Of a DNA stretch of 64,000 nucleotides, positions 549 to 42,334 are shown piece by piece. The position numbers were made by a program, and so were the translations under genes. The notes beneath the pieces were generated by a model. It saw only the letters and a list, made by a program, of their open reading frames with translations, searched no databases and had not been told where the DNA came from. The DNA comes from Firmicutes bacterium HGW-Firmicutes-9 (GTDB lineage: Bacteria; Bacillota; Clostridia; Christensenellales; CAG-138), in the NCBI GenBank assembly GCA_002841395.1, contig PGZM01000005.1, positions 142,556-206,555 of the forward strand, given 5' to 3'. Within the stretch, counting starts at the first letter, position 1; each line of letters starts with the position of its first letter.

Positions 549-625
549 TGGTAGCGGCGATCTGATTCGAACAGATGACACTCCGGGTATGAACCGAATG
601 CTCTAGCCAGCTGAGCTACGCCGCC
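549..625 (-). tRNA. tRNA-Met (anticodon CAU), elongator-like, CCA encoded
   Basis: The reverse complement is GGCGGCGTAGCTCAGCTGGCTAGAGCATTCGGTTCATACCCGGAGTGTCATCTGTTCGAATCAGATCGCCGCTACCA. It folds as a cloverleaf with a 7-bp acceptor stem, anticodon stem TTCGG/CCGGA, loop TTCATAC, and T-arm ATCTG-TTCGAAT-CAGAT. I cannot exclude a lysidine-modified tRNA-Ile2. Confidence 0.9.
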
Positions 626-30112: not shown

Positions 30113-31321
30113 ATGGATTCACCCATCCGGGTCAAAAGTGAAGTCGGAACACTCAAGCGCGTGCTGCTGCACCGTCCGGGGCAGGAGCTTGAGAATCTGA
30201 TGCCGCAATATCTCTCTCGTCAGCTGTTTGAGGACATCCCGTATCTCGTGCACGCACGCGAGGAGCACGATCAGTTTGCCGAAACGCTGCGTCAAAGCGG
30301 AGTTGAGGTGGTGTATCTGCTCGACCTTGTCGCAGAGGCGGTCAAGGAACCCGCGGTCAAGGAGCAGATCATCGCGGACTTCATCTCGGAGATCGGTATC
30401 TCCGCGCGCGGCGTTGAAGAGCGCGTGCGGGAGTATCTGCTGAGCCTGCCCGTACCGCAAATGCTTGCGAGCATGGTGCGCGGTGTTAGAAAGAGCGACC
30501 TCGGCAGCCGCGAGCCGATCCACCTTGTGGATTATATCGACGATGCGTATCCCTTCTTCGTCGATCCCATGCCGAACCTGTATTTTACCCGCGATCCGTT
30601 CTTCATGATCGACGGTGGGGTCTGCATCTCCAGCATGGCAAACAACGTGCGCGCGCGGGAGACCCTCTTTGGGCAATATCTCTTTACGCATCACCCGCTC
30701 TATAAAAACACGCCGATGCTGCATACGAGAAACGATCCGTTTTCGATCGAGGGCGGAGATGTGCTCGTGCTCTCAAGTGAGGCAGTCGCGATCGGCATGT
30801 CCCAGCGCACCGATCCCCACGCGGTGGAAGCGCTCGCAAAGCGGCTGATCTGCGAGGAGACCGGGATTCAGCGCGTGCTTGCGATCGATATTCCCAAGAC
30901 GCGCTCCTATATGCACCTCGACACGGTCATGACGATGGTGGATGTGGATAAGTTTACGATCCATCCGTCGATTCTGCCTGCGGTGCGGACATTCCTGCTC
31001 AAGAAAAAGGACGGGGCTCTCGTCATCGAGCCGCAGAAGCGCAAGCTGGCGGAGTCGCTGGCAGAAACGCTGCATCTCGATAAAGTAACCATGATCCACT
31101 GCGGCGGTCCGAGCGCAATCGACGCCGCGCGCGAGCAGTGGAACGACGGCACCAACACCCTAGCGGTCGCGCCCGGCGAGATCATCGCGTTTTCTCGCAA
31201 CTATGTGACCAATGGCATCCTGCGTGAGCACGGGGTAAAGGTGCACGAAATCCCGTCCGCGGAGCTCTCCCGCGGACGCGGTGGGCCCAGATGTATGAGC
31301 ATGCCGCTCTGGCGGGAATAA
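30113..31321 (+). CDS. arcA: Arginine deiminase
   Basis: VKSEVGTLKRVLLHRPG at the N-terminus and a catalytic-Cys region GGPRCMSMP at the C-terminus. Confidence 0.9.
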   Translation: MDSPIRVKSEVGTLKRVLLHRPGQELENLMPQYLSRQLFEDIPYLVHAREEHDQFAETLRQSGVEVVYLLDLVAEAVKEPAVKEQIIADFISEIGISARGVEERVREYLLSLPVPQMLASMVRGVRKSDLGSREPIHLVDYIDDAYPFFVDPMPNLYFTRDPFFMIDGGVCISSMANNVRARETLFGQYLFTHHPLYKNTPMLHTRNDPFSIEGGDVLVLSSEAVAIGMSQRTDPHAVEALAKRLICEETGIQRVLAIDIPKTRSYMHLDTVMTMVDVDKFTIHPSILPAVRTFLLKKKDGALVIEPQKRKLAESLAETLHLDKVTMIHCGGPSAIDAAREQWNDGTNTLAVAPGEIIAFSRNYVTNGILREHGVKVHEIPSAELSRGRGGPRCMSMPLWRE

Positions 31322-31430
31322 GCGCAACTGACTATAAAATGGCAGATGAGCATGCTGCTCTTGAGAGAGTAAACGTGACCGTCCGCAAAACGGCAGATGC
31401 GCCAGTTGTTTGAAGAGAGTAATTCACAAC
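31286..31430 (+). repeat. Three degenerate tandem copies (~50-bp period) of the arcA 3' terminus
   Basis: CCAGATGTATGAGCATGCCGCTCTGGCGGGAATAAGCGCAACTGAC, then GGCAGATGAGCATGCTGCTCTTGAGAGAGTAAACGTGAC, then GGCAGATGCGCCAGTTGTTTGAAGAGAGTAATTCACAAC. Confidence 0.6.
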
Positions 31431-31521
31431 GCGTTCAAATGAGTGATACTTTTGTTGTGGTAGAATGAATCGGGTAGATGCAGAAAAAAGCGCCCGAATT
31501 CAACAGAAAAGGTAGTCCCGC

Positions 31522-32118
31522 ATGTATGGTTTGATTCGTATCGTGATCGCGATTCTGTTCGCGTCACCGTTTATCCTGATTCCCGTGTTCCGGCATACTT
31601 TCCAGAACCGCAGGGCATTTTTCATCGTGTCTGCGGTTTCTTTGGCGCTTGTGCTCGGCGTGTTCCTCTATCAGTGGCCGTTTGAGAACCAGTTCGGCGG
31701 CTTCGGCACGGCGCAGCAGGCGTTTGAATATCAGTACGGCGAGTCGGCATATATCTACACGCTTGAAGGAGAAGAAACGGCGCTCGTCCTCACGGAACGG
31801 GACGGCGATGTACTCCGCAAAGAGGGCGATCGCTTTTACCTGATCAGCCCGCGGTATACGGCGCGCGTCAACGCGTTTTCCGCGGACACCAGCGTCATCA
31901 TCCGTGGCGATCAACGCACGCAGGAGCGGTTTGTCCAGCTGACCATGATCGAGACGGATCGAAACCCCGCGACGATTACGGACAGCAAGGGAACCGACTT
32001 TGAAACGGCGTTTAACGACAAAGGCCTTACCTATTTTGCGGGTATGTTTATCGAGGATAGCGAGAAATACACGCTCTATATCGATGGCATGGACGTCGGC
32101 CTGATGAAACTGCAATAA
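31522..32118 (+). CDS. Hypothetical membrane-anchored protein (two N-terminal TM helices)
   Basis: ORF between arcA and the ornithine carbamoyltransferase gene. I recognise no family. Confidence 0.55.
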   Translation: MYGLIRIVIAILFASPFILIPVFRHTFQNRRAFFIVSAVSLALVLGVFLYQWPFENQFGGFGTAQQAFEYQYGESAYIYTLEGEETALVLTERDGDVLRKEGDRFYLISPRYTARVNAFSADTSVIIRGDQRTQERFVQLTMIETDRNPATITDSKGTDFETAFNDKGLTYFAGMFIEDSEKYTLYIDGMDVGLMKLQ

Positions 32119-32165
32119 GCGTTTAGAAAAGAACTTGTATCATAATATTATTTTTGGAGGAACGT

Positions 32166-33149
32166 ATGAACCTGCACGGAAGAAGCTTTTTGACCCTGCT
32201 TGATTATTCCCCCGAAGAGATCCGTTACCTGCTCGACTTGAGCCATGCGCTCAAGCGCGAAAAGATCGCGCGCGCATTCCCCGAACGCCTGAAGCATAAG
32301 AACATCGTGCTGATCTTTGACAAGACCAGCACCCGCACGCGCTGCGCGTTTGAGGTTGCGGCGCTCGACGAAGGCGCGCATGTCACGTACCTGAGCAACA
32401 GCCAGATGGGCAAGAAGGAATCGCTGGAGGACACGGCGAAGGTGCTCGGACGCTATTATGACGCGATCGAGTATCGCGGCTTTGGCCAGCAGATCGTAGA
32501 AGACCTCTCGCGCTATTCCGGCGTGCCGGTTTGGAACGGGCTGACGGACACCGACCATCCGACGCAGATTCTCGCGGATTTCATGACCATCGAGGAGCAT
32601 GCGAAAAAGCCGCTGAACGAAATTCACCTCGCCTACGTGGGCGATGCGCGCAATAACATGGGCAATTCGCTCATGATCGGCTGCGCGAAGATGGGTATGC
32701 AATTTACCGCGATTGCGCCCCGCGCACTCTGGCCGGAAGAGGGCCTGACCGCGCGGATGAAGGAGCTCGGCAAGATGACCGGCGCCGTGATCGAGTTTTC
32801 CGAATCGCTCGACGCGGTTGCGGGCGCGGATGCCGTCTATACCGACGTGTGGGTGTCCATGGGCGAAGAAGCGCAGTTTGCGGAGCGCATCGAGCAATTG
32901 GAGCCGTACCGCGTGACGATGGACTTGATGAAGAAGACCGGCAATCCGGACGCGCTGTTTTTACACTGCCTGCCGAGTTTTCATGACCTGGAGACGGTCG
33001 TCGGCAGGGAGATTTTCGACAAATATGGCTTAAAAGAGATGGAAGCAAGCGACGAAGTGTTCCGTTCGAAGAACAGCGTGGTATTCGACGAGGCTGAAAA
33101 CCGCATGCATACGATCAAAGCCGTTATGGTTGCAACGCTCGGAGATTAG
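32166..33149 (+). CDS. arcB: Ornithine carbamoyltransferase (catabolic arcB by context; anabolic argF not excluded)
   Basis: STRTR and HCLP motifs. GGAGG lies 5 nt before the ATG at 32166. Confidence 0.9.
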
Positions 33150-33359: not shown

Positions 33360-34691
33360 ATGACTATGGAAGACCGGTATCGTAACGACGTCGCGGTGCA
33401 GGTGCCGCGCGTATTACTGCCGAAAAAGGGCACCGACTACTACAAGTGGGCGGTTGTTGCCTGCGATCAGTACACCTCCCAGCCGGCCTACTGGGAAGAC
33501 GCCAAGCGCATCGTCGGCAAAGCGCCGTCTACGCTGGAACTGATCCTGCCGGAAGCGTATCTGGAAAAGCCCGGCGAAGCAGAGCGCATCGTGAGCATCA
33601 AACAGCACATGCGCGAATACCTCGACAAAGGCATTCTGGAAGAGAAGCCGCAGGGTTTTGTGCTCGTCACCCGCACGGTTGAGGGAAACACCCGCACCGG
33701 CCTTGTGATGGCGCTGGACCTTGAAGCATACGATTATTCTAAGGGCTCCACGACGCTGATTCGCGCGACGGAGGGGACGATCGTCTCCCGCATTCCACCG
33801 CGTCTCAAGATTCGCGAAGGCGCGCCCATCGAGCTGCCGCACATTCTCGTGCTGATCGACGACCCGGACAAGACGGTCATCGAACCGCTCGCGCAGAAGA
33901 AGGCGAAGCTGACCAAGCTGTATGATACTGACCTCATGCTCGACGGCGGTCACATCACCGGTCACCTCGTGGATGGAGAAAACGATATTCTGGGCGTGCT
34001 CAACGCGCTCTCCGCACTCAAGGATGAAGAACGCTTCTCCAAGAAGTATGGCAACCGCGCACCGATGCTCTTTGCCATGGGCGATGGCAACCACAGCTTC
34101 GCCACCGCGAAAGCCAACTGGGAAAAAATCAAGGAAACACTTTCGGAAGAAGAGCGCGCGGATCATCCCGCCCGCTATGCGCTGGTCGAGGTGGAGAACG
34201 TGCACGACGAAGGCATCGTCTTTGAGCCGATTCACCGTGTGATGTTTGGTGCTTCCGGCAACCGCGCAATCGAAACTATCCTGCGTCACTTTAAGTCGCA
34301 TTATTCCTGCGCAAAGGTGGAGCTTGGACGCATGCCCTGCGCACAGGGTGGCGACACGCATATCCTGCCGTTTATCACGGGCGAAGTGGAGGGCGCATTC
34401 ATCATCAGCTGCCCGACGTCTCAGCTCGCGGTCGGCACGCTGCAGTCCGCGCTGGACGAATCAGCGAAAGAGATCTGTGGTTGTGAAATCGACTATATCC
34501 ACGGCGCGGATGTGGTCAAGGAACTCGCGAGAAAGGGCGGCGCAATCGGATTCCTGCTGCCCGCGCTCAAGAAGGATGAGTTCTTCTCCACAGTCATCTT
34601 CGACGGCGCGCTGCCGAGAAAGACCTTCTCCATGGGCGAAGCGAATGAGAAGCGTTATTATCTCGAATGCCGCTCGCTGGAAAAGAAGTAA
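33360..34691 (+). CDS. DUF1015-family protein
   Basis: The N-terminal pattern VLLPKKGTDYYKWAVVACDQYTSQP and the length match my recollection of DUF1015. Confidence 0.75.
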   Translation: MTMEDRYRNDVAVQVPRVLLPKKGTDYYKWAVVACDQYTSQPAYWEDAKRIVGKAPSTLELILPEAYLEKPGEAERIVSIKQHMREYLDKGILEEKPQGFVLVTRTVEGNTRTGLVMALDLEAYDYSKGSTTLIRATEGTIVSRIPPRLKIREGAPIELPHILVLIDDPDKTVIEPLAQKKAKLTKLYDTDLMLDGGHITGHLVDGENDILGVLNALSALKDEERFSKKYGNRAPMLFAMGDGNHSFATAKANWEKIKETLSEEERADHPARYALVEVENVHDEGIVFEPIHRVMFGASGNRAIETILRHFKSHYSCAKVELGRMPCAQGGDTHILPFITGEVEGAFIISCPTSQLAVGTLQSALDESAKEICGCEIDYIHGADVVKELARKGGAIGFLLPALKKDEFFSTVIFDGALPRKTFSMGEANEKRYYLECRSLEKK

Positions 34692-36192: not shown

Positions 36193-36302
36193 TATCCGCG
36201 AAGCATTGGCAATTGACAAATTAAATACGTGTTAACAGACAAAAGCGGTGATATAATTAATATTGCATTTGATCAAAGTTGAAGGAAAAGGGGTATTCAG
36301 GG

Positions 36303-37664
36303 ATGGCACTTCGGGATTTGTTGCATGCAAAGGAAAACCGGATCGAAAATGAACGACTGAATCGACTCGTAGAAGAACTCGGCGCTCTCGAGTACGCTGA
36401 AGTACAGAAAAAGACTATTGAAGCCAAAGCAAATTTAAGTGATTTACTTGTTGAAAAGAAAAAGTGTGAAGAAGAAAATGCCGAACTGGAACGCCGGAGG
36501 GAAGCTCTTGAGCTAGTTGTGGGCGAGCTCCAAAAACGACTAGAGCTTTCTGAGACTATTGAAGAACTTCAAAAATCCATCGCTGCAAAAAGAAGAGAAT
36601 TGATTATCGCGGATGAAGCGGTTTTGATGGAAAGTTTTGCATTATATAAACCTACTTATGCGTTTACTAAAGCTGATGCATATAAGGAGAAACTCGACAA
36701 AGTCCGTTCGCAACAGAAAGACATGATAAAGAACAATATTGCTGCTTTTGGGTCGGATCAATGGACTGTGAATAATAGTCTGTCGCAGGGCAAAAAACTA
36801 GTCGGAGATATGAAGAAACTTTGCTTGCGATCGTTTAATAATGAGTGTGATGCGGCAGTAGATGAAGTAAAATTCAACAACTTCGAGCGATGTGAAGCTC
36901 GTATTGAGAAGTCTGCTGAGGCAGTTGAGAAACTCGGCAAAATGATGGGCGTTCGAATTAATCCGCGATTTGTACAGTTAAAAAAGGATGAGTTGAGAGT
37001 AGCGCTCGAGTATCAAATTCAAAAGCAACGTGAGAAAGATGAGCAAAAAGAACTCCGTGCGCAACAACGTGAAGAAGCGCGTGTCGCAAAGGAACTTGAA
37101 GAAGCTAGAAAAGAAGCATTGAAAGAACAGCAACACTATCAAAATGCAATCGATAAAATCAACAAGCAAATTGATGCATGCAAGAGTGAAACGGAGCTAG
37201 AAGTTCTAAAGGAGAAACTTGAAGACCTTACTTCAAAACTCGATGTGATTACGGAGAACATCGCTCAGATTGATTATCGCCAAGCAAACCAGAAGGCTGG
37301 ATATGTGTATGTGATTTCAAATCTTGGTGCGTTTGGTGAAAATGTTTATAAAATTGGAATGACTCGCCGTCTCGAACCGCAGGAACGAGTAGATGAATTA
37401 GGGGATGCATCTGTCCCATTCAATTTCGATGTTCATGCTATGATCTTTTCAGACAACGCGCCTGCCTTAGAGGCGGTTCTTCATCACACTTTCTCAGAAC
37501 GCAGATTAAACTATATCAATAATCGGCGTGAATTCTTCCAGGTAACATTAGACGAGATTAAGAAGGTTATCAAAGAGAATCATGATAAGACAGTAGAATT
37601 TGTTGAGATTCCGCCTGCAGAGCAGTATCGTGAGACCCAGAAAATGAAAGAAGTAGGTGCATAA
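36303..37664 (+). CDS. Coiled-coil / DUF4041-like protein with a C-terminal T5orf172 (MUG113, GIY-YIG-like) domain
   Basis: C-terminal GYVYVISN...NVYKIGMTRRLEPQERVDELGDASVPFNFDVHAMIF...LEAVLHHTF...RREFFQV, preceded by long Glu/Lys coiled coils. AT-rich (36421-36480 has 17 G+C of 60). The start could be the ATG at 36303 or the TTG at 36279. Confidence 0.7.
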   Translation: MALRDLLHAKENRIENERLNRLVEELGALEYAEVQKKTIEAKANLSDLLVEKKKCEEENAELERRREALELVVGELQKRLELSETIEELQKSIAAKRRELIIADEAVLMESFALYKPTYAFTKADAYKEKLDKVRSQQKDMIKNNIAAFGSDQWTVNNSLSQGKKLVGDMKKLCLRSFNNECDAAVDEVKFNNFERCEARIEKSAEAVEKLGKMMGVRINPRFVQLKKDELRVALEYQIQKQREKDEQKELRAQQREEARVAKELEEARKEALKEQQHYQNAIDKINKQIDACKSETELEVLKEKLEDLTSKLDVITENIAQIDYRQANQKAGYVYVISNLGAFGENVYKIGMTRRLEPQERVDELGDASVPFNFDVHAMIFSDNAPALEAVLHHTFSERRLNYINNRREFFQVTLDEIKKVIKENHDKTVEFVEIPPAEQYRETQKMKEVGA

Positions 37665-37734: not shown

Positions 37735-39183
37735 TTACAAACTCTCGCCCAAATCCTTGCGGAACTTGGCGACGAGCTGCTCCTGCCAGTCTCCGATGGG
37801 CTCGAGGCGGCCGAAGAAGAAGCGAAGGGTCGCGGGTTCTTCCACGAAGTTCAACCCGCCGATGAGATGGCGGTTTTCATACAGCCAGCTGATGCGGTCG
37901 ACCGCGTAGAGCACCTGACTCATGGTAAACACGCGCCGCGGGAGCGCAAGACGCAGCAGCTCCATGCTCGCGATGGGCTCCGTGCCGTCCGGCTCGCGCT
38001 GCTCGGAGAGCGTGCCGCGTTCCATGCCGCGCACACCGCTGGCGATATACAAAGCTGATGCCAGCGCAGCCGCAGGGTACGCGTGATCGTCCACATGCGA
38101 GAGGAACTTTCTTGCGTTGATGTGGCAGCCGAGACCGCCCGCAGGGGTGACGACGGGTACGCCGCGCTTTTGCAGCTCCGCCACCATGAACTCGATAAAC
38201 TGCGGACCCTGCGAGATCACGCTTTCGTCCATTGTCTCCTCAAGGCCGACGGTCATCGCCTCCATCTCGCGTACGCTCATGCCGCCGTAGGTTAAGAATC
38301 CCTCAAACAGCGGGATGAAATCTTTCATCTTCTCATAGTAAGCGCGGTCGTTCATCGCCATGCCGCCGCCGCGCGCGAAACCGAGCTTGCGTGCGGAGAA
38401 GTAGATGATGTCTGCGTTCGCGCAGACCGCGCGCGTGATCTCGCGGATGGACATATTCTTGCAAGCGGCCTCTCGTACCTTGATGAAGTGGAGGTTGTCC
38501 TGCAGAAGGCTTGCGTCCAGCACTACCATAATGCCGTTGTCGTGCGCGAGCTTCGCGGTCGCGGTCATGTTCTCCAGCGAGAAAGGCTGGCCGCCGATGA
38601 GGTTTGTGCCCGCCTCAAGACGCACGAACGGAATATTCTCTTTGCCGTTTCGCGTGATGCATTCGCGGAGCTTGTCGAGATCGATGTTACCCTTGAACGG
38701 AAGATCGCTCTCCGGCTCAAGTCCCGCGTCCGAAACCAGCTCTTCCACGCGTCCGCCGACGCGCGTGATGTGCGCCTTTGCCGTGGTGAAATGGAAGTTC
38801 ATCGGCACCACGTCGCCGGGTTTGACAAACGAGCTCGCGAGGATGCTTTCGCAGGCGCGGCCTTGATGCGCCGGGAGGAAGTAGCTTGTGCCAAACAGCT
38901 CGCACACCTTCTTCTCAAGGCGGTAATACGTTGCGCTGCCGGCGTAGCTGTCGTCCGCAACCATCATGGAGGCGACCGCCTGGTCGCTCATCGCGTTGAC
39001 GCCGCTATCGGTGAGCATGTCCAGATAGACATCCTCGTTTCGAAGTAGAAACGTGTTGTTGCCCGCTTCCGCCATCGCCTTTTGACGCGCCTCTACGGGA
39101 AGCAGGTTGAGTTTCTGTACCACACGCACTTTGTGCATTTCGAGCGGGAGCTTTTCTCCCGAATACAGTTTGACTTCGCTCAT
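37735..39183 (-). CDS. Beta-eliminating PLP lyase, tryptophanase / tyrosine phenol-lyase family (divergent)
   Basis: NTFLLRNEDVYLDMLTDSGVNAMSD, HQGR and LRLALPRRV align with TnaA/TPL as I remember them. The ATG at 39183 has a GGAGGA upstream. Confidence 0.85.
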   Translation of the reverse strand: MSEVKLYSGEKLPLEMHKVRVVQKLNLLPVEARQKAMAEAGNNTFLLRNEDVYLDMLTDSGVNAMSDQAVASMMVADDSYAGSATYYRLEKKVCELFGTSYFLPAHQGRACESILASSFVKPGDVVPMNFHFTTAKAHITRVGGRVEELVSDAGLEPESDLPFKGNIDLDKLRECITRNGKENIPFVRLEAGTNLIGGQPFSLENMTATAKLAHDNGIMVVLDASLLQDNLHFIKVREAACKNMSIREITRAVCANADIIYFSARKLGFARGGGMAMNDRAYYEKMKDFIPLFEGFLTYGGMSVREMEAMTVGLEETMDESVISQGPQFIEFMVAELQKRGVPVVTPAGGLGCHINARKFLSHVDDHAYPAAALASALYIASGVRGMERGTLSEQREPDGTEPIASMELLRLALPRRVFTMSQVLYAVDRISWLYENRHLIGGLNFVEEPATLRFFFGRLEPIGDWQEQLVAKFRKDLGESL

Positions 39184-39253
39184 GTTGTTGTCTTCCTCCA
39201 TCTGTTTTGAATCGTGTTGAAAATCGTCGCCGGAATCGGCAAAGACAAGCAAT

Positions 39254-39560
39254 AAAAAAACGCCCTCTGCTCAAGCAAGAGGGCGAATAGTTCGCGGTAC
39301 CACCTCGGTTCGCCGTTCCCTTGCGGGAAGCGGCCTTATTGGGTACAGACGGCGTTGCAAAATTGGAGCCTGTCGATACCCTGCCTTTGATAACGGGAGG
39401 AATCCCGGCGCGTCCCTACTGAAGCGATCGACAGTTCTCGATTTACTCGTTCAGGCGGCGGCTGTTTGCGCGTATTCGCGGGTGCTCCCGGCTGCCTTGC
39501 ACCATCCGGCAGTTCTCTTGCGGGCGCTTGGCGGTACAGTGCCGCCGGGACCGTTACTTC
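39254..39560 (-). promoter_or_regulatory. T-box riboswitch leader, candidate Tyr (UAC) specifier
   Basis: On the minus strand: AG-bulge-like AAGAGAA plus hairpin CUGCC-GGAUGGUGCAA-GGCAG. GAA-UAC-G follows on the 3' side of Stem I (UAC is plus 39472-39474). The T-box motif GGUGGUACCGCG is plus 39293-39304. The terminator CGCCCUCU-N9-AGAGGGCG-U7 is plus 39254-39285. Confidence 0.75.
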
Positions 39561-39646
39561 TTCGCAGTCATGGCCTTTGATGTTGTGTTTTCAAGTGGAG
39601 AGGCCCGATTTCGCCAACAAAAGAAGCGCGAAACCGATTACTAAGG

Positions 39647-39676
39647 AGTATAAAATAATATAAGATATATTGTCAA
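39647..39676 (-). promoter_or_regulatory. Sigma-70 promoter TTGACA-18-TATACT for the T-box leader
   Basis: On the minus strand, TTGACA is at 39671-39676 and TATACT at 39647-39652. Confidence 0.55.
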
Positions 39677-39861
39677 GGTCAAATACGTGTGTTGCACGAA
39701 ATATTACTAGAAAATGAATTATACCAAACGCGCGCGAGTTACCGAAAAGTTCACGAAATGTTCTTTGCAGAGTTCATAAGCGGGTTGTATAATAGTTGCG
39801 ATATATTGGTTGAAATATGCGATTCAGAATACTCTCGCTTCAGAACGGAGGAAGTGGATAG

Positions 39862-42024
39862 ATGGTATGCAAAGAATGCGGCTCGTATAATGCCGAGAAC
39901 CTGAGCGTCTGCAAAGAATGCGGTGCGAAGCTTCGCGACGACGATACGAGCTCCAACAGCGTGGAGCAGGCAACCGCCAACGAAGAAGGAAGACCCGCGC
40001 GTGATTTTGTGAAACCGCCGGCCTGGCCTAAGAGCGCTTTTGCAGGTGCTCCCGAGAAACCCGCCGGTTCGGCTTCCGCAAGCGCGCCCGTGCCTTCCGG
40101 TTCGTTTCGCCCCACCATTCCGCCGCGTGCCGCGGCAACGCCGACCTGCCCGCATTGCGGCAAGCCGGTGCTCTCGGATGCGCCGTTTTGCGCCTATTGC
40201 GGCCAGCGCGTCGCCGGGGAAGCCCCCGCGGCCGTGCCCGTGCCCGTCCCCACGCGTCCCGCAGCAAAACCCGCTGCCGTACAGCCGTCCAGACCGAGTT
40301 ATGCAGCGACGGACTTTGACGACGAAGACGATGACGATTACGAAGCGGACGACGAGGAAGATTACAGGCCCGCAAAGGCAAGTAAGCGTCCCGGTAAACT
40401 CGCGCGTCATCAGGAAGACGACTTCGACGAGTACGACGAGGATGACGAGGAGTACGACGACGAATATGATGACGAAATGCCCGCCAAACGCGGCAAGGGT
40501 ACGACCATTCTCTTCTGGGGTTTGATCGCGCTTCTGCTTGCGCTCATCGTGGTGTTTGGTCTCTATATCGCGAGAAAGAACTTCGACGGCGACGTCGGCA
40601 AGATGTTCTCTTCGATCGGTACGATCTTCAACAAAGGCAATTCGGACGACCTCAACGCCGCCGATCCTTCGTCGACCACCGATCCGAACAGCCAGATGTA
40701 CACCGCGACCATCACCGAGTCGACCGACGCCGCGACAAACGAAGTCTGGTACGACATCGATATCGTTGCCCCGACCGGCAGCGCAATCCGCGTGGTAACG
40801 GACGCGACGCTCACGCAGGACACCGTCAAGGTTCCGGCGAACGATCGCATCGTGCTCCATATCCCGCGTGATGTGTTCATGCCCAACGCGCCGGTGGACA
40901 GCGAGACCGTGACATTGCAGCCGAACATCCAGGCGATTTCGCCGGATGGACAGACCATGCAGGTTGCAGTCCCGGCGATCACGGTTACCGTTCCGGTTCT
41001 TTCGATGACCGTTACGGAGCCCATGGGCGGCACCGTCAACGCAACGTTTGACAACAGCCCGATCGCGATCATCGGTCAGGTGAATAACTATGACGGCGAG
41101 ATTGCGGTCTACGTCAACGACGAACAGGTCTATGTGGACAGCACCGGTATGTTTACCGCGAGCTATACGCCCAAGCAGGTCGCAGCCGTGCAGACGCTGC
41201 CGACAGCTCTGCCGGAAGCCACCACGGATCCTTCCGTAACGCCGGATCCTGCCGCGAGCACCTCGCCGGATGCGACAACCGAAGACGTGACAGCGACCGA
41301 AGAGCCGCTCGTAGACGAAACCGCCGCGACGGATACACTTCCCACGGGCAGCACAGAGACCATCACCATCGAAGCGCGCAAGAACAACTGCGTGACCGCG
41401 AGAACGGTGATCACCGTCGAGCCGTATGTCATGCAGACCATGTCGTTCACGATTGATAACGATCTGAAGAGCCTCTCTTCCGACTCGGGCAGCGTGACCA
41501 TCACCGGTACCTGCACGCCAGGCGCCGTGATCACCGGCAAGAGCGCTTCGCCCGATGTAACCTTCGGCGAGGCGACCGTATCCGATACGGGTACGTTCTC
41601 CATGCTTGTGACCATCGCGAAGGTTGGCGGATTTGATATCAGCCTCGAAGGCAAGCTCCAGGGCTACTACGACGGAACCGCGAACGCGATTGTCGAGCGT
41701 CCGCCGACGGTATCCTCCAGCTCGTTTAAGAAGGCTGCAGCCGACATTGCCAAGAACATGGACAAGATCAAGTCCGGCGCAACCACGAGCGGAGACTTTG
41801 TTGTCACCGGCAGAATCACCGAGATCATCTCCACCGATCCGTACACGATCTTCCGGGTGCAGATTTCCGAAGGTGTTGAAGTGATCGTTTACAACCGCAG
41901 CGCGAAGTCCACGATTAACTCCTCCGACCTGAAGGAGAAGAAGCAGGTCGCGGGTACGCTCAAGGGACTTTATACAGATGGTGTCACTCCGGTTCTCTGG
42001 GGTTGGTTCATCTGGAACAAGTAA
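39862..42024 (+). CDS. Double zinc-ribbon, acidic-tract, single-pass membrane protein with a ~480-aa extracytoplasmic domain
   Basis: CKECGSYN..CKECG and CPHCGKPV..CAYCG ribbons, a D/E/Y-rich tract, TM helix ILFWGLIALLLALIVVFGLYI, and a GGAGGAAG RBS. Confidence 0.7.
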   Translation: MVCKECGSYNAENLSVCKECGAKLRDDDTSSNSVEQATANEEGRPARDFVKPPAWPKSAFAGAPEKPAGSASASAPVPSGSFRPTIPPRAAATPTCPHCGKPVLSDAPFCAYCGQRVAGEAPAAVPVPVPTRPAAKPAAVQPSRPSYAATDFDDEDDDDYEADDEEDYRPAKASKRPGKLARHQEDDFDEYDEDDEEYDDEYDDEMPAKRGKGTTILFWGLIALLLALIVVFGLYIARKNFDGDVGKMFSSIGTIFNKGNSDDLNAADPSSTTDPNSQMYTATITESTDAATNEVWYDIDIVAPTGSAIRVVTDATLTQDTVKVPANDRIVLHIPRDVFMPNAPVDSETVTLQPNIQAISPDGQTMQVAVPAITVTVPVLSMTVTEPMGGTVNATFDNSPIAIIGQVNNYDGEIAVYVNDEQVYVDSTGMFTASYTPKQVAAVQTLPTALPEATTDPSVTPDPAASTSPDATTEDVTATEEPLVDETAATDTLPTGSTETITIEARKNNCVTARTVITVEPYVMQTMSFTIDNDLKSLSSDSGSVTITGTCTPGAVITGKSASPDVTFGEATVSDTGTFSMLVTIAKVGGFDISLEGKLQGYYDGTANAIVERPPTVSSSSFKKAAADIAKNMDKIKSGATTSGDFVVTGRITEIISTDPYTIFRVQISEGVEVIVYNRSAKSTINSSDLKEKKQVAGTLKGLYTDGVTPVLWGWFIWNK

Positions 42025-42031
42025 CGATAGC

Positions 42032-42334
42032 GTGAGAATCTGGGCAAAAGTACTCAAACAACATAAAATCAAACTGGAGGCCGTGCGGGAGTTCCCCGCG
42101 CGGCCTTCGGATGCAGAGGACTGGTCGCGGCTGATTGCGGAGATCGTAAAGCCGCTCGATCTGGCCAGCCCCGTGCTGCTCAACAAGCACGTACAAGAGC
42201 TGGAGCGGTTTAACCGCACATGGTTTACACAAGCGGATTTCATCGAGAGCATTTCGTTTGACCGCTTTGAACTCGAAATATTCCCCGAGAAGAAAAAGGA
42301 CAGGAAAGTGGACTATATCTTCGGGGACGACTGA
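42032..42334 (+). CDS. Small conserved hypothetical protein
   Basis: The ORF runs on to the flavin-reductase gene with a 2-nt gap. I chose the GTG at 42032 to avoid overlap with the upstream stop, so the start is uncertain. Confidence 0.5.
   Translation: MRIWAKVLKQHKIKLEAVREFPARPSDAEDWSRLIAEIVKPLDLASPVLLNKHVQELERFNRTWFTQADFIESISFDRFELEIFPEKKKDRKVDYIFGDD

Follow-up and report, generated by a model that had tools for sequence, protein, structure and literature searches.

The leader of Bacillus subtilis tyrS is the founding T-box (Rfam family RF00230): it presents a UAC codon followed by a purine, an AG bulge, a distal loop and a UGGU bulge suited to base A73 of tRNA-Tyr, and its competing terminator and antiterminator turn the gene on when tRNA-Tyr is uncharged. 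Here we describe a leader with the same features, located on the minus strand of a 64,000-nucleotide (nt) stretch of Firmicutes bacterium HGW-Firmicutes-9 (contig PGZM01000005.1, positions 142,556 to 206,555), which we call the window and number from its first letter. While the tyrS T-box controls tyrosyl-tRNA synthetase (TyrRS), the one in the window stands in front of a gene for a lyase resembling tyrosine phenol-lyase (TPL), and the T-box subgroup to which it belongs differs from tyrS in that its Stem I holds an additional hairpin, which covaries, and in its GC-rich insertions.

The Tyr T-box targets listed in the catalogues consulted are tyrS, the NhaC/TyrT transporters, tyrA/aro genes and phhA (PMC2494555; PMC3766115 supplement), and all of them raise the tyrosine supply. 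No gene of the family formed by TPL and tryptophanase (TnaA) is found among the T-box targets of PMC2494555 and the PMC3766115 supplement, and a full-text search for T-box together with tyrosine phenol-lyase or tryptophanase returned nothing relevant, an earlier mention in T-box reviews being possible. The catalogues and text searches agree with the original prediction for this locus, which knew of no Tyr T-box on this enzyme family. The closest conceptual precedent for a salvage-type tyrosine supply under T-box control is the Tyr T-box on the phenylalanine-4-hydroxylase gene phhA and on the tyrosine biosynthesis operon of the Bacillus cereus group (Wels 2008, PMC2494555), which drives a tyrosine-making enzyme of a non-standard route. 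PhhA, however, belongs to a different enzyme family, uses phenylalanine and not phenol as its substrate, and makes tyrosine unambiguously, whereas the TPL-type family of the window enzyme is known only for degradation.

Canonical tpl is a catabolic gene activated by TyrR with tyrosine, and in Clostridium tetani tpl adjoins a PhhR-like activator (PMC1173090). Escherichia coli TnaA belongs to the same Pfam family as the window enzyme (PF01212) and tnaA is also controlled by a leader peptide, but with the opposite logic, since tnaC induces tnaA when tryptophan is abundant. The lyases described below carry starvation sensors where canonical tpl has activation by TyrR and tyrosine.

Anatomy of the T-box leader in the window

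Transcription of the lyase leader would start near position 39640, just downstream of a sigma-70-type promoter on the minus strand (39676-39647) made up of TTGACA (39676-39671), an 18-nt spacer and TATACT (39652-39647). This promoter matches 11 of 12 consensus positions, as had been expected of it, and the same sequence is kept in the orthologous leaders L002 and L003. The distance from the inferred start to the ATG of the lyase gene is about 455 nt; the original prediction had given the leader about 380 nt up to the start codon, a length that corresponds instead to the distance to the end of the terminator.

When the leader alone was searched with permissive filters, the covariance model (CM) of RF00230 aligned to it end to end (model positions 1-219; 39580-39276, minus strand), covering Stem I, the Stem II region, Stem III and the antiterminator, with a score of 56.2 bits (E = 1.4e-11 in that search) against a gathering score of 93 bits. 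With the terminator included, the whole transcriptional T-box leader spans 39580-39254. A default Rfam scan of the whole window reported no T-box, only a tRNA-Met. The expectation that RF00230 would recognize this leader is thus borne out by the full-length alignment, which has UAC in the specifier slot, and not by the score, which is lowered by an inserted Stem I hairpin and by GC-rich insertions.

In the CM alignment, the helix that closes the specifier loop has UGCG (39566-39563) as its 5′ strand, and this is followed by the S-turn motif AAGAAGUA (39562-39555), the AG bulge AGAGA (39518-39514) and the distal hairpin CUGCC-GGAUGGUGCAA-GGCAG (39512-39492), all on the minus strand. The region of the AG bulge and the distal hairpin aligns to the consensus cAGAGAgcuggcGgUUGGUGaaAgccagc and is invariant in the subgroup of the window; together the two elements make up the platform for stacking against the elbow of the tRNA. 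The specifier itself consists of GAA (39477-39475), the Tyr codon UAC (39474-39472) and the purine G (39471), after which comes CGCA (39470-39467), which pairs with UGCG as the 3′ side of the closing helix. Both the AG bulge with its CUGCC/GGCAG hairpin and the GAA-UAC-G specifier had been read correctly from the sequence beforehand. The stem had also been thought to be closed by GGCGGC/GCCGCC, which did not hold: GGCGG (39546-39542) pairs locally with CCGCC (39534-39530) within the 5′ strand of Stem I, forming the hairpin GGCGG-CACUGUA-CCGCC (39546-39530, minus strand) that appears as an insertion in the alignment, and it is UGCG/CGCA that closes the loop. The inserted hairpin covaries among 10 aligned leaders of the same subgroup (GGUGC/GCACC, GGGCG/CGCCC and AAAGAAA/UUUCUUU).

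Further downstream on the same strand, a Stem III hairpin, GCCGCUUCCC-GCAA-GGGAACGGC (39334-39312), is placed by the CM alignment, and the T-box sequence GGUGGUACCGCG lies at 39304-39293. The antiterminator (39306-39279, -6.4 kcal/mol) is built from GAGG, the 7-nt bulge UGGUACC, the hairpin GCGAA-CUA-UUCGC and CCUC, and its UGGU (39302-39299) is complementary to a tRNA 3′ end of ACCA, in which the first A is A73. The same pairing logic, on which the original prediction had based its preference for tRNA-Tyr over tRNA-Trp, is conserved in 44 related loci. An intrinsic terminator, CGCCCUCU-UGCUUGAGC-AGAGGGCG followed by U7 (39285-39254, -16.8 kcal/mol), has a 9-nt loop, and for that reason only it was missed by the consensus terminator scanner, whose loop limit is 8 nt. 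The segment UUCGCCCUC belongs both to the 5′ arm of this terminator and to the 3′ arm of the antiterminator, so that the two structures are mutually exclusive. As the terminator is far more stable than the antiterminator, the leader is expected to behave as a switch that is OFF by default, its ON state requiring the acceptor end of a tRNA. The window leader thus displays the Stem I elements typical of a T-box (S-turn, codon plus purine, AG bulge and distal loop) together with an antiterminator whose 7-nt UGGN bulge excludes the terminator. A search of the window and 22 loci found no tRNA-Tyr gene from which the discriminator base could be read.

The T-box and its UAC codon in related loci

To the window we added 80 loci from representative genomes, 5 contig look-ups and a set of metagenome loci. 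A Tyr T-box was found 5′ of the lyase family gene in 44 loci in total, namely in the window, in 25 of the 80 representative-genome loci, in all 5 contig look-ups and in 13 metagenome loci. The specifier was legible in 39 of these 44 leaders, each time as UAC with a purine after it, and no other codon was seen: the codon was present in the window, in 25/25 representative-genome leaders, in both of the 2 look-ups examined, and in 11 of the metagenome leaders, the remaining 2 being truncated or partial. A regular expression for the core motif detected 13 of the 25 genome T-boxes; this strict search missed the 12 leaders that bear the GGUGGUAACACG variant, which were recovered with a profile of confirmed leaders. 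Eight orthologous leaders (L066, L067, L054, L075, L070, L020, L034 and L060) pass the RF00230 gathering score with 94-154 bits, and among them the specifier slot reads GAA-A-UAC-A in all 4 printed alignments. The window leader is homologous to these threshold-passing leaders as judged by nhmmer.

The 4-bp helix that closes the specifier loop is fully paired in 33/40 leaders and occurs in 13 covarying versions. It begins directly after UAC and the purine, and its partner is formed by the 4 nt just 5′ of the S-turn, a position that fixes the register in which the codon is read. This bears on the possibility that the T-box reads a shifted frame, ACG/ACA for threonine or AUA for isoleucine, in which case the signal would not be tyrosine. 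The overlapping ACR triplets both encode threonine, the UGGU bulge is also compatible with other tRNAs that have A73, and no tRNA-Tyr gene was available in the window and the loci searched for a check of the discriminator. However, the CM alignments place UAC at the specifier and the next purine at the conserved post-codon position, where the closing helix takes over, the leader peptides described below run Tyr codons and not Thr or Ile codons, and the pocket of the enzyme is of the tyrosine type. The chance of a shifted frame is thus minute, and we excluded it because the CM register, the helix that closes the loop and the leaders with Tyr codons all speak against it. The presence of a T-box and its specificity for tyrosine are almost certain when the family and the window are taken together.

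The T-box-bearing loci come exclusively from Bacillota (Oscillospiraceae, Christensenellales, Tissierellaceae, Halanaerobiales, Tepidanaerobacteraceae, Eubacteriaceae, Alkaliphilus and others), and the members that carry a T-box are scattered over the whole protein tree. No T-box was found in control loci, comprising 2 canonical TPL loci (from a B. cereus plasmid and from Pantoea) and 11 TnaA-type metagenome loci.

Short Tyr-rich frames (MESDYYYFKLD... and MDHMDDDYYKYIM...) were noticed between the T-box terminator and the lyase start in two of the T-box loci (L031:5300-5376 and L076:5928-6000). They lie in AT-rich sequence and have no clear ribosome-binding site, and we judged their resemblance to leader peptides to be due to chance. 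Also present, a few kb downstream of the lyase and unrelated to it, are a NiCo riboswitch (L070:5671-5771, 71 bits) and tRNA-Cys genes (L070:5425-5498 and L075:8423-8496).

Tyrosine-codon leader peptides in loci without a T-box

The attenuators of E. coli trpL, pheL and hisL consist of a short open reading frame (ORF), in which codons for the regulated amino acid stand in a row, and of overlapping hairpins and an intrinsic terminator after it. A comparable arrangement built on Tyr codons was found in 8 of the 98 loci that lack a T-box, each of which has, upstream of the lyase and on the sense strand, a short ORF with 4-7 consecutive Tyr codons. These ORFs belong to five unrelated leaders, which encode the peptides MKNLFLTNCYYYYKQHSRT (L049, 5683-5840), MTNNRITKLNSYYYYGLR (L074, 5743-5912), MNTKKYYYYYYYCQLRSHS (L105, 2258-2405), MKFSNFYYYYYAVN (shared by L116, L118, L124 and L168; L116:2356-2482) and MFNTIFKNTLANYYYYYTECSVL (L121, 2208-2400). 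Compared with the 8 loci, the same test gave 0, 0 and 0 on the upstream antisense, downstream sense and downstream antisense strands, and no other amino acid rose above background in the upstream codon-run test. The runs mix TAT and TAC codons, which indicates that tyrosine coding is conserved, rather than a simple DNA repeat.

In 5/5 leaders the lyase is preceded by hairpins that overlap and by a strong terminator ending in a U-tract, a promoter-like sequence is present in 4/5, and a Shine-Dalgarno sequence in 4/5 (weak in L105). The 2 leaders that were compared with shuffled sequence, L049 and L074, are far more structured than expected (z = -5.0 and -5.6, respectively). No Rfam family matched upstream of the lyase in the loci with Tyr-codon leaders, and the closest metagenome relative of the L074 locus is 71% identical. 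Unlike the E. coli attenuators, these leaders use Tyr codons, occur in Bacillota-type hosts and have a lyase as their target.

When ribosome masks were applied in equilibrium folding, the terminator persisted in all cases. We then used a co-transcriptional model in which the RNA was folded only up to the terminator loop and the Tyr codons were covered by the footprint of a ribosome. When this ribosome was stalled at the Tyr codons, the upstream segment of the L121 leader captured the 5′ arm of the terminator with a value of 0.62-0.67, compared to 0.30 for the free or replete state, and in L116 this capture amounted to 0.78, compared to 0.15 for free RNA. In the model, then, stalling at Tyr codons would favor read-through in these two of the five leaders, in L116 in part only. 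The anatomy and the tyrosine specificity of the leaders can be regarded as established, whereas their precise way of switching is inferred, and we propose them as candidate tyrosine-specific leader-peptide attenuators. A literature search returned no description of a Tyr-codon attenuator, and we know of none.

Two sensors of tRNA-Tyr charging have thus been recruited repeatedly to one gene family, with a logic opposite to that of canonical TPL regulation. Among the Bacillota loci that have neither device, an Rfam scan gave no match upstream of the lyase, and a scan for TyrR/PhhR boxes upstream of all loci yielded only background levels. In two Spirochaetaceae loci (L027:91-408 and L030:5341-5910), the lyase has, 91-96 nt upstream and in the same orientation, a gene for a TetR-family regulator, which may control the lyase in that phylum.

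The lyases form a separate clade next to TPL

The gene downstream of the window leader (39183-37735, minus strand; ATG at 39183, stop codon at 37737-37735) is preceded by a Shine-Dalgarno sequence, GGAGG (39199-39195), read from the sequence 11 nt 5′ of the ATG. It encodes a TPL-like enzyme of 482 amino acids (aa) that depends on pyridoxal 5′-phosphate (PLP), with its PLP lysine, K266, encoded at 38388-38386 and a family-specific C-terminal tail (residues 462-482) at 37800-37738. The protein matches Pfam PF01212, but among NCBIfam models it passes only the broad subfamily model NF009709 ('tryptophanase'). It fails both the TPL equivalog TIGR02618 (415.4 bits against a cut-off of 720.7) and the TnaA equivalogs TIGR02617 and NF053783 (323 bits against 825.8, and 378 bits against 750). 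The window protein is therefore neither a tryptophanase nor a TPL equivalog, and should be filed as neither.

Its closest solved relatives are the Erwinia and Citrobacter TPLs, with about 40% identity and TM scores of 0.75-0.80, followed by TnaA structures. In a tree of 81 members, 2 canonical TPLs and E. coli TnaA, the members form a tight clade that is sister to TPL. Database searches returned thousands of relatives (>8,000 matches) of about 482 aa, all labelled 'tryptophanase'; no record of the exact window protein was found. Members of the clade show 65-70% identity across Bacillota, Spirochaetes, Bacteroidota, Alpha-, Beta- and Gammaproteobacteria, Acidobacteriota, Planctomycetes, Verrucomicrobia, Fusobacteria and Actinobacteria.

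The residues of the clade were compared in TPL numbering. The clade shares with the TPLs of Citrobacter freundii and Erwinia herbicola (PDB 2ez1 and 1c7g; TIGR02618) the fold, the PLP lysine and the pocket residues: F36, Y71, R100, F123, T124, N185, D214, K257, Y291, M379, R381 and R404 are kept in 81/81 members, and F448 and F449 in 80/81 (one gap). Four of these are of the TPL type where TnaA differs, namely T124 (D in TnaA), R381 (I), F448 (H) and M379 (V); in the numbering of E. coli TnaA, the residues D137, I396 and H463 are replaced in the clade by T, R and F. The alignment against TPL and TnaA thus assigned the specificity residues to the TPL type.

Other positions set the clade apart. 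E69D, T216S, R217L, K256R, D258L and N262R are invariant in the clade and unlike both TPL and TnaA, so that the cofactor and cation environment that those two enzymes have in common (K256, R217, D258 and E69) is replaced in 81/81 members. H343L distinguishes the clade from the Citrobacter, Erwinia and B. cereus TPLs, and M288F makes it TnaA-like at that position. The conserved C-terminal tail, some 21 residues long and with a confidently predicted helix at residues 466-478, has no counterpart in canonical TPL. The AlphaFold model of the window protein is of moderate confidence (pLDDT 72.5), and its use is limited to confirming the fold and the tail helix. The divergence noted in the original prediction, that is, the FSARKLG context of the PLP lysine, PAHQGR and an extra tail, was found again. 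Judged from these residues, the clade retains an intact phenol/tyrosine pocket together with the apparatus that breaks or forms the C-C bond to phenol, and has remodelled the surroundings of the cofactor and cation sites.

Such a pocket raises the question of which substrate is handled when tyrosine is low. The enzyme might destroy tyrosine analogues or antimetabolites (meta-tyrosine, halogenated or nitrated tyrosines, 3,4-dihydroxyphenylalanine (DOPA)) that compete at TyrRS and become harmful under these conditions. TPL-type enzymes accept many ring-substituted tyrosines (PMC13174591), induction by uncharged tRNA-Tyr would fit a relief of competition, and M288F could shift the ring specificity. 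However, the residues that hold the 4′-OH and the remaining pocket are identical to those of TPL, so that tyrosine itself would also be destroyed, and the broad and strong conservation across phyla is more easily explained by a core metabolic role. We regard the destruction of analogues as very improbable.

The likeness to TPL also raises the possibility of an ordinary catabolic TPL or general beta-eliminating lyase, with the T-box as an oddity that serves the scavenging of pyruvate and ammonium, or as a relic of recombination with a tyrS leader. The closest solved relatives are indeed catabolic TPLs, the catalytic residues for beta-elimination are intact, thermodynamics favor cleavage, and the lyase gene is solitary, as catabolic tpl and tnaA often are. 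Yet it would be self-defeating to degrade tyrosine exactly when tRNA-Tyr is uncharged, and the unrelated Tyr-codon leader peptides impose the same logic on the gene. Canonical TPL, for its part, is induced by tyrosine via TyrR, and its control loci have no T-box. Finally, the T-box is kept in 44 loci of many Bacillota lineages that are scattered over the protein tree, which argues that it is not a relic. A purely degradative enzyme is thus improbable.

Gene surroundings of the lyase

Downstream of the stop codon of the window gene, a hairpin read from the sequence as AAAAGCCCUUCC-GAUC-GGAAGGGCUUUUU and flanked by A and U runs (37707-37679, minus strand) is likely to act as a bidirectional terminator, as a gene on the plus strand (36279-37664) converges on it. 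Given this terminator hairpin after the stop codon and the convergent, unrelated neighbors, we consider the lyase gene to be monocistronic. The neighboring genes in the window, which code for a DUF4041/T5orf172 protein, an ORF of 833 aa, an aspartokinase-like protein, a DUF1015 protein, ornithine carbamoyltransferase and arginine deiminase, are all unrelated to the lyase.

Clustering of neighbors over the 80 loci revealed no recurrent partner of the lyase; the weak clusters were generic only (ATP-binding cassette ATPase, response regulator, short-chain dehydrogenase/reductase, sigma-54 activator and DUF554). Two loci show a link to aromatic biosynthesis. In L054 (357-3344), a Tyr T-box, a spacer of about 400 nt and the lyase gene (1054-2502) are followed, 61 nt further on and on the same strand, by the gene for DAHP synthase, which makes L054 the sole locus with a T-box that would also control a shikimate-pathway gene. 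In L025 (6001-12379), a Kiritimatiellia-type metagenome-assembled genome, the lyase lies about 830 nt upstream of genes for DAHP synthase, prephenate dehydratase/chorismate mutase, proC and a proB-like kinase. As this linkage concerns 2 of about 146 loci, it was not used as statistical evidence; taken singly, the L054 operon is informative.

Several further features of the surroundings were recorded. The product of the convergent gene at 36279-37664 (+) carries DUF4041, T5orf172/MUG113 and DUF7902 domains, a set that is frequently linked to phages or mobile elements. The 833-aa ORF (39751-42252, minus strand) lies directly 5′ of the lyase promoter and has no Pfam match; in L001, L003-L005 and L084 this place is taken by homologues that bear a CxxC zinc-ribbon at their N-terminus, which points to local synteny. 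A DUF1015 gene is found about 3 kb from the lyase on the opposite strand of the window (33360-34691, plus strand), and another DUF1015 protein is encoded 31 nt downstream of the lyase in L016 (1792-3105). The two proteins gave no mutual tblastn match at E = 1e-6, and because they are this divergent their proximity to the lyase is probably a coincidence. The window also contains arginine deiminase and ornithine carbamoyltransferase genes (30113-33149, plus strand), part of the arginine deiminase pathway, and its sole tRNA gene is a tRNA-Met (CAU) at 549-625 (minus strand).

Proposed mechanism and function

In the mechanism we propose, RNA polymerase would start near 39640 and the UAC specifier of Stem I would read the GUA anticodon of tRNA-Tyr. 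If this tRNA is uncharged, its free NCCA end would pair with the UGGU bulge and stabilize the antiterminator, allowing read-through into the lyase gene, whereas charged tRNA-Tyr would be unable to pair with the bulge and transcription would stop at 39254. Because uncharged tRNA would be needed for read-through, the lyase gene should be ON when tyrosine is scarce, and such an induction would be expected in vivo. It is very likely, and strongly supported by the comparison of loci, that the clade is controlled by tyrosine starvation. The window thus holds a class-I (transcriptional) tRNA-Tyr T-box on a single gene, whose product would probably supply tyrosine through phenol salvage.

The case for a supply function comes from the regulation and from the pocket. 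Two mechanistically unrelated sensors of tRNA-Tyr charging, both ON at low charging, indicate that the gene raises the tyrosine supply, and with an intact phenol/tyrosine pocket the simplest chemistry would be the formation of tyrosine from phenol. TPL is able to make tyrosine derivatives from phenols inside cells (PMC13174591). Two routes can be envisaged, the condensation of phenol with pyruvate and ammonium, and a beta-replacement in which phenol and serine would give tyrosine; either would amount to salvaging phenol, in anaerobic habitats where phenol and ammonium are plentiful. The original prediction had reasoned that the T-box makes sense only if the enzyme works toward tyrosine or does something new, a view supported by the TPL-type pocket of the clade, the Tyr-codon leaders and the L054 operon. 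We infer both the direction and the substrates of catalysis from these comparisons, and a tyrosine-forming, phenol-salvage function, for phenol specifically, seems to us slightly better than an even guess.

Several points weigh against a tyrosine-forming function or against parts of its regulatory support. The window leader scores under the RF00230 gathering threshold, attenuator switching is ambiguous in 3/5 Tyr-codon leaders (L049, L074 and L105) in the co-transcriptional model, and both sensors are missing from about one third of the Bacillota members and from all members of other phyla. The link to aromatic biosynthesis, at 2 of about 146 loci, is near chance. Hosts of the clade such as Rhodopseudomonas palustris very probably have a normal tyrosine biosynthesis, in which case the enzyme would not be a simple replacement of TyrA. 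The invariant R217L, K256R, D258L, E69D and H343L may bear on catalysis itself. Moreover, the equilibrium of TPL favors breakdown, and synthesis normally needs substrates at about 1-10 mM (PMC13174591). Plain reversal of TPL may therefore be too weak, unless serine acts as the C3 donor or charging by TyrRS pulls the reaction. Factors that could tip the balance are the family-specific changes at the PLP site, the ammonium and phenol of the habitat, and the continuous removal of tyrosine by TyrRS. The source habitats, which include digesters and the rumen, termite and other animal guts, are high in ammonium and phenol.

The same points leave room for an enzyme that supplies tyrosine under starvation by a chemistry other than plain reverse TPL with free phenol. 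It might form or set free tyrosine from some other precursor, for example if serine, cysteine or O-acetylserine underwent beta-replacement and the phenolic donor was not phenol, or take part in an unrecognized de novo branch, for example from chorismate via 4-hydroxybenzoate and phenol to tyrosine. The regulatory evidence for this is the same as for phenol salvage, and the thermodynamics run against the plain reverse reaction (PMC13174591). R217L, K256R, D258L, N262R, E69D and the new C-terminal helix occur in neither TPL nor TnaA, and this invariant remodelling of the PLP site suggests an altered chemistry. DAHP synthase is co-transcribed with the lyase in L054, and DAHP synthase and PheA are encoded near it in L025. 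However, the invariant pocket and acid-base residues (Y71, R381, T124 and F448) fit phenol as a substrate, and no recurrent partner gene, such as one for a decarboxylase or a chorismate lyase, accompanies the lyase. We consider such a different chemistry unlikely, and retain phenol salvage as the preferred function.

T-boxes and TPL-type enzymes are each well known, and it is their pairing that reverses the accepted role of the enzyme family. The convergence of two unrelated charging sensors on one gene provides unusually strong comparative evidence for function. If the Tyr-codon leaders act as proposed, they would be the first tyrosine-specific leader-peptide attenuators and would extend classical attenuation to tyrosine.

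In its widest form, our proposal is that the 'tryptophanase' clade may be an unrecognized anabolic 'tyrosine synthase', which would assimilate environmental phenol under two convergent tRNA-Tyr sensors in many phyla of anaerobes and phototrophs, with phenol being cross-fed in gut and digester communities; we put this forward tentatively, at a little short of an even chance. Work on the gut-kidney axis counts tnaA and tpl homologues to infer the production of indole and phenol, from which indoxyl sulfate and phenyl sulfate arise. Were the proposal correct, part of the tnaA/tpl counts in metagenomes would represent consumers of phenol and not producers of indole or phenol, a phenol-consuming clade within these counts would bias the estimates, and natural phenol sinks would be indicated. 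Phenol, a fermentation end product and precursor of a uraemic toxin, would in that case pass as a nutrient between members of these communities. A relative of TPL that evolved for synthesis could also be a better catalyst for the production of tyrosine and L-DOPA analogues. If the clade does make tyrosine, a large family spread over many phyla would be misannotated, and the known pathways to tyrosine would be joined by a cheap one that needs a single step from phenol.

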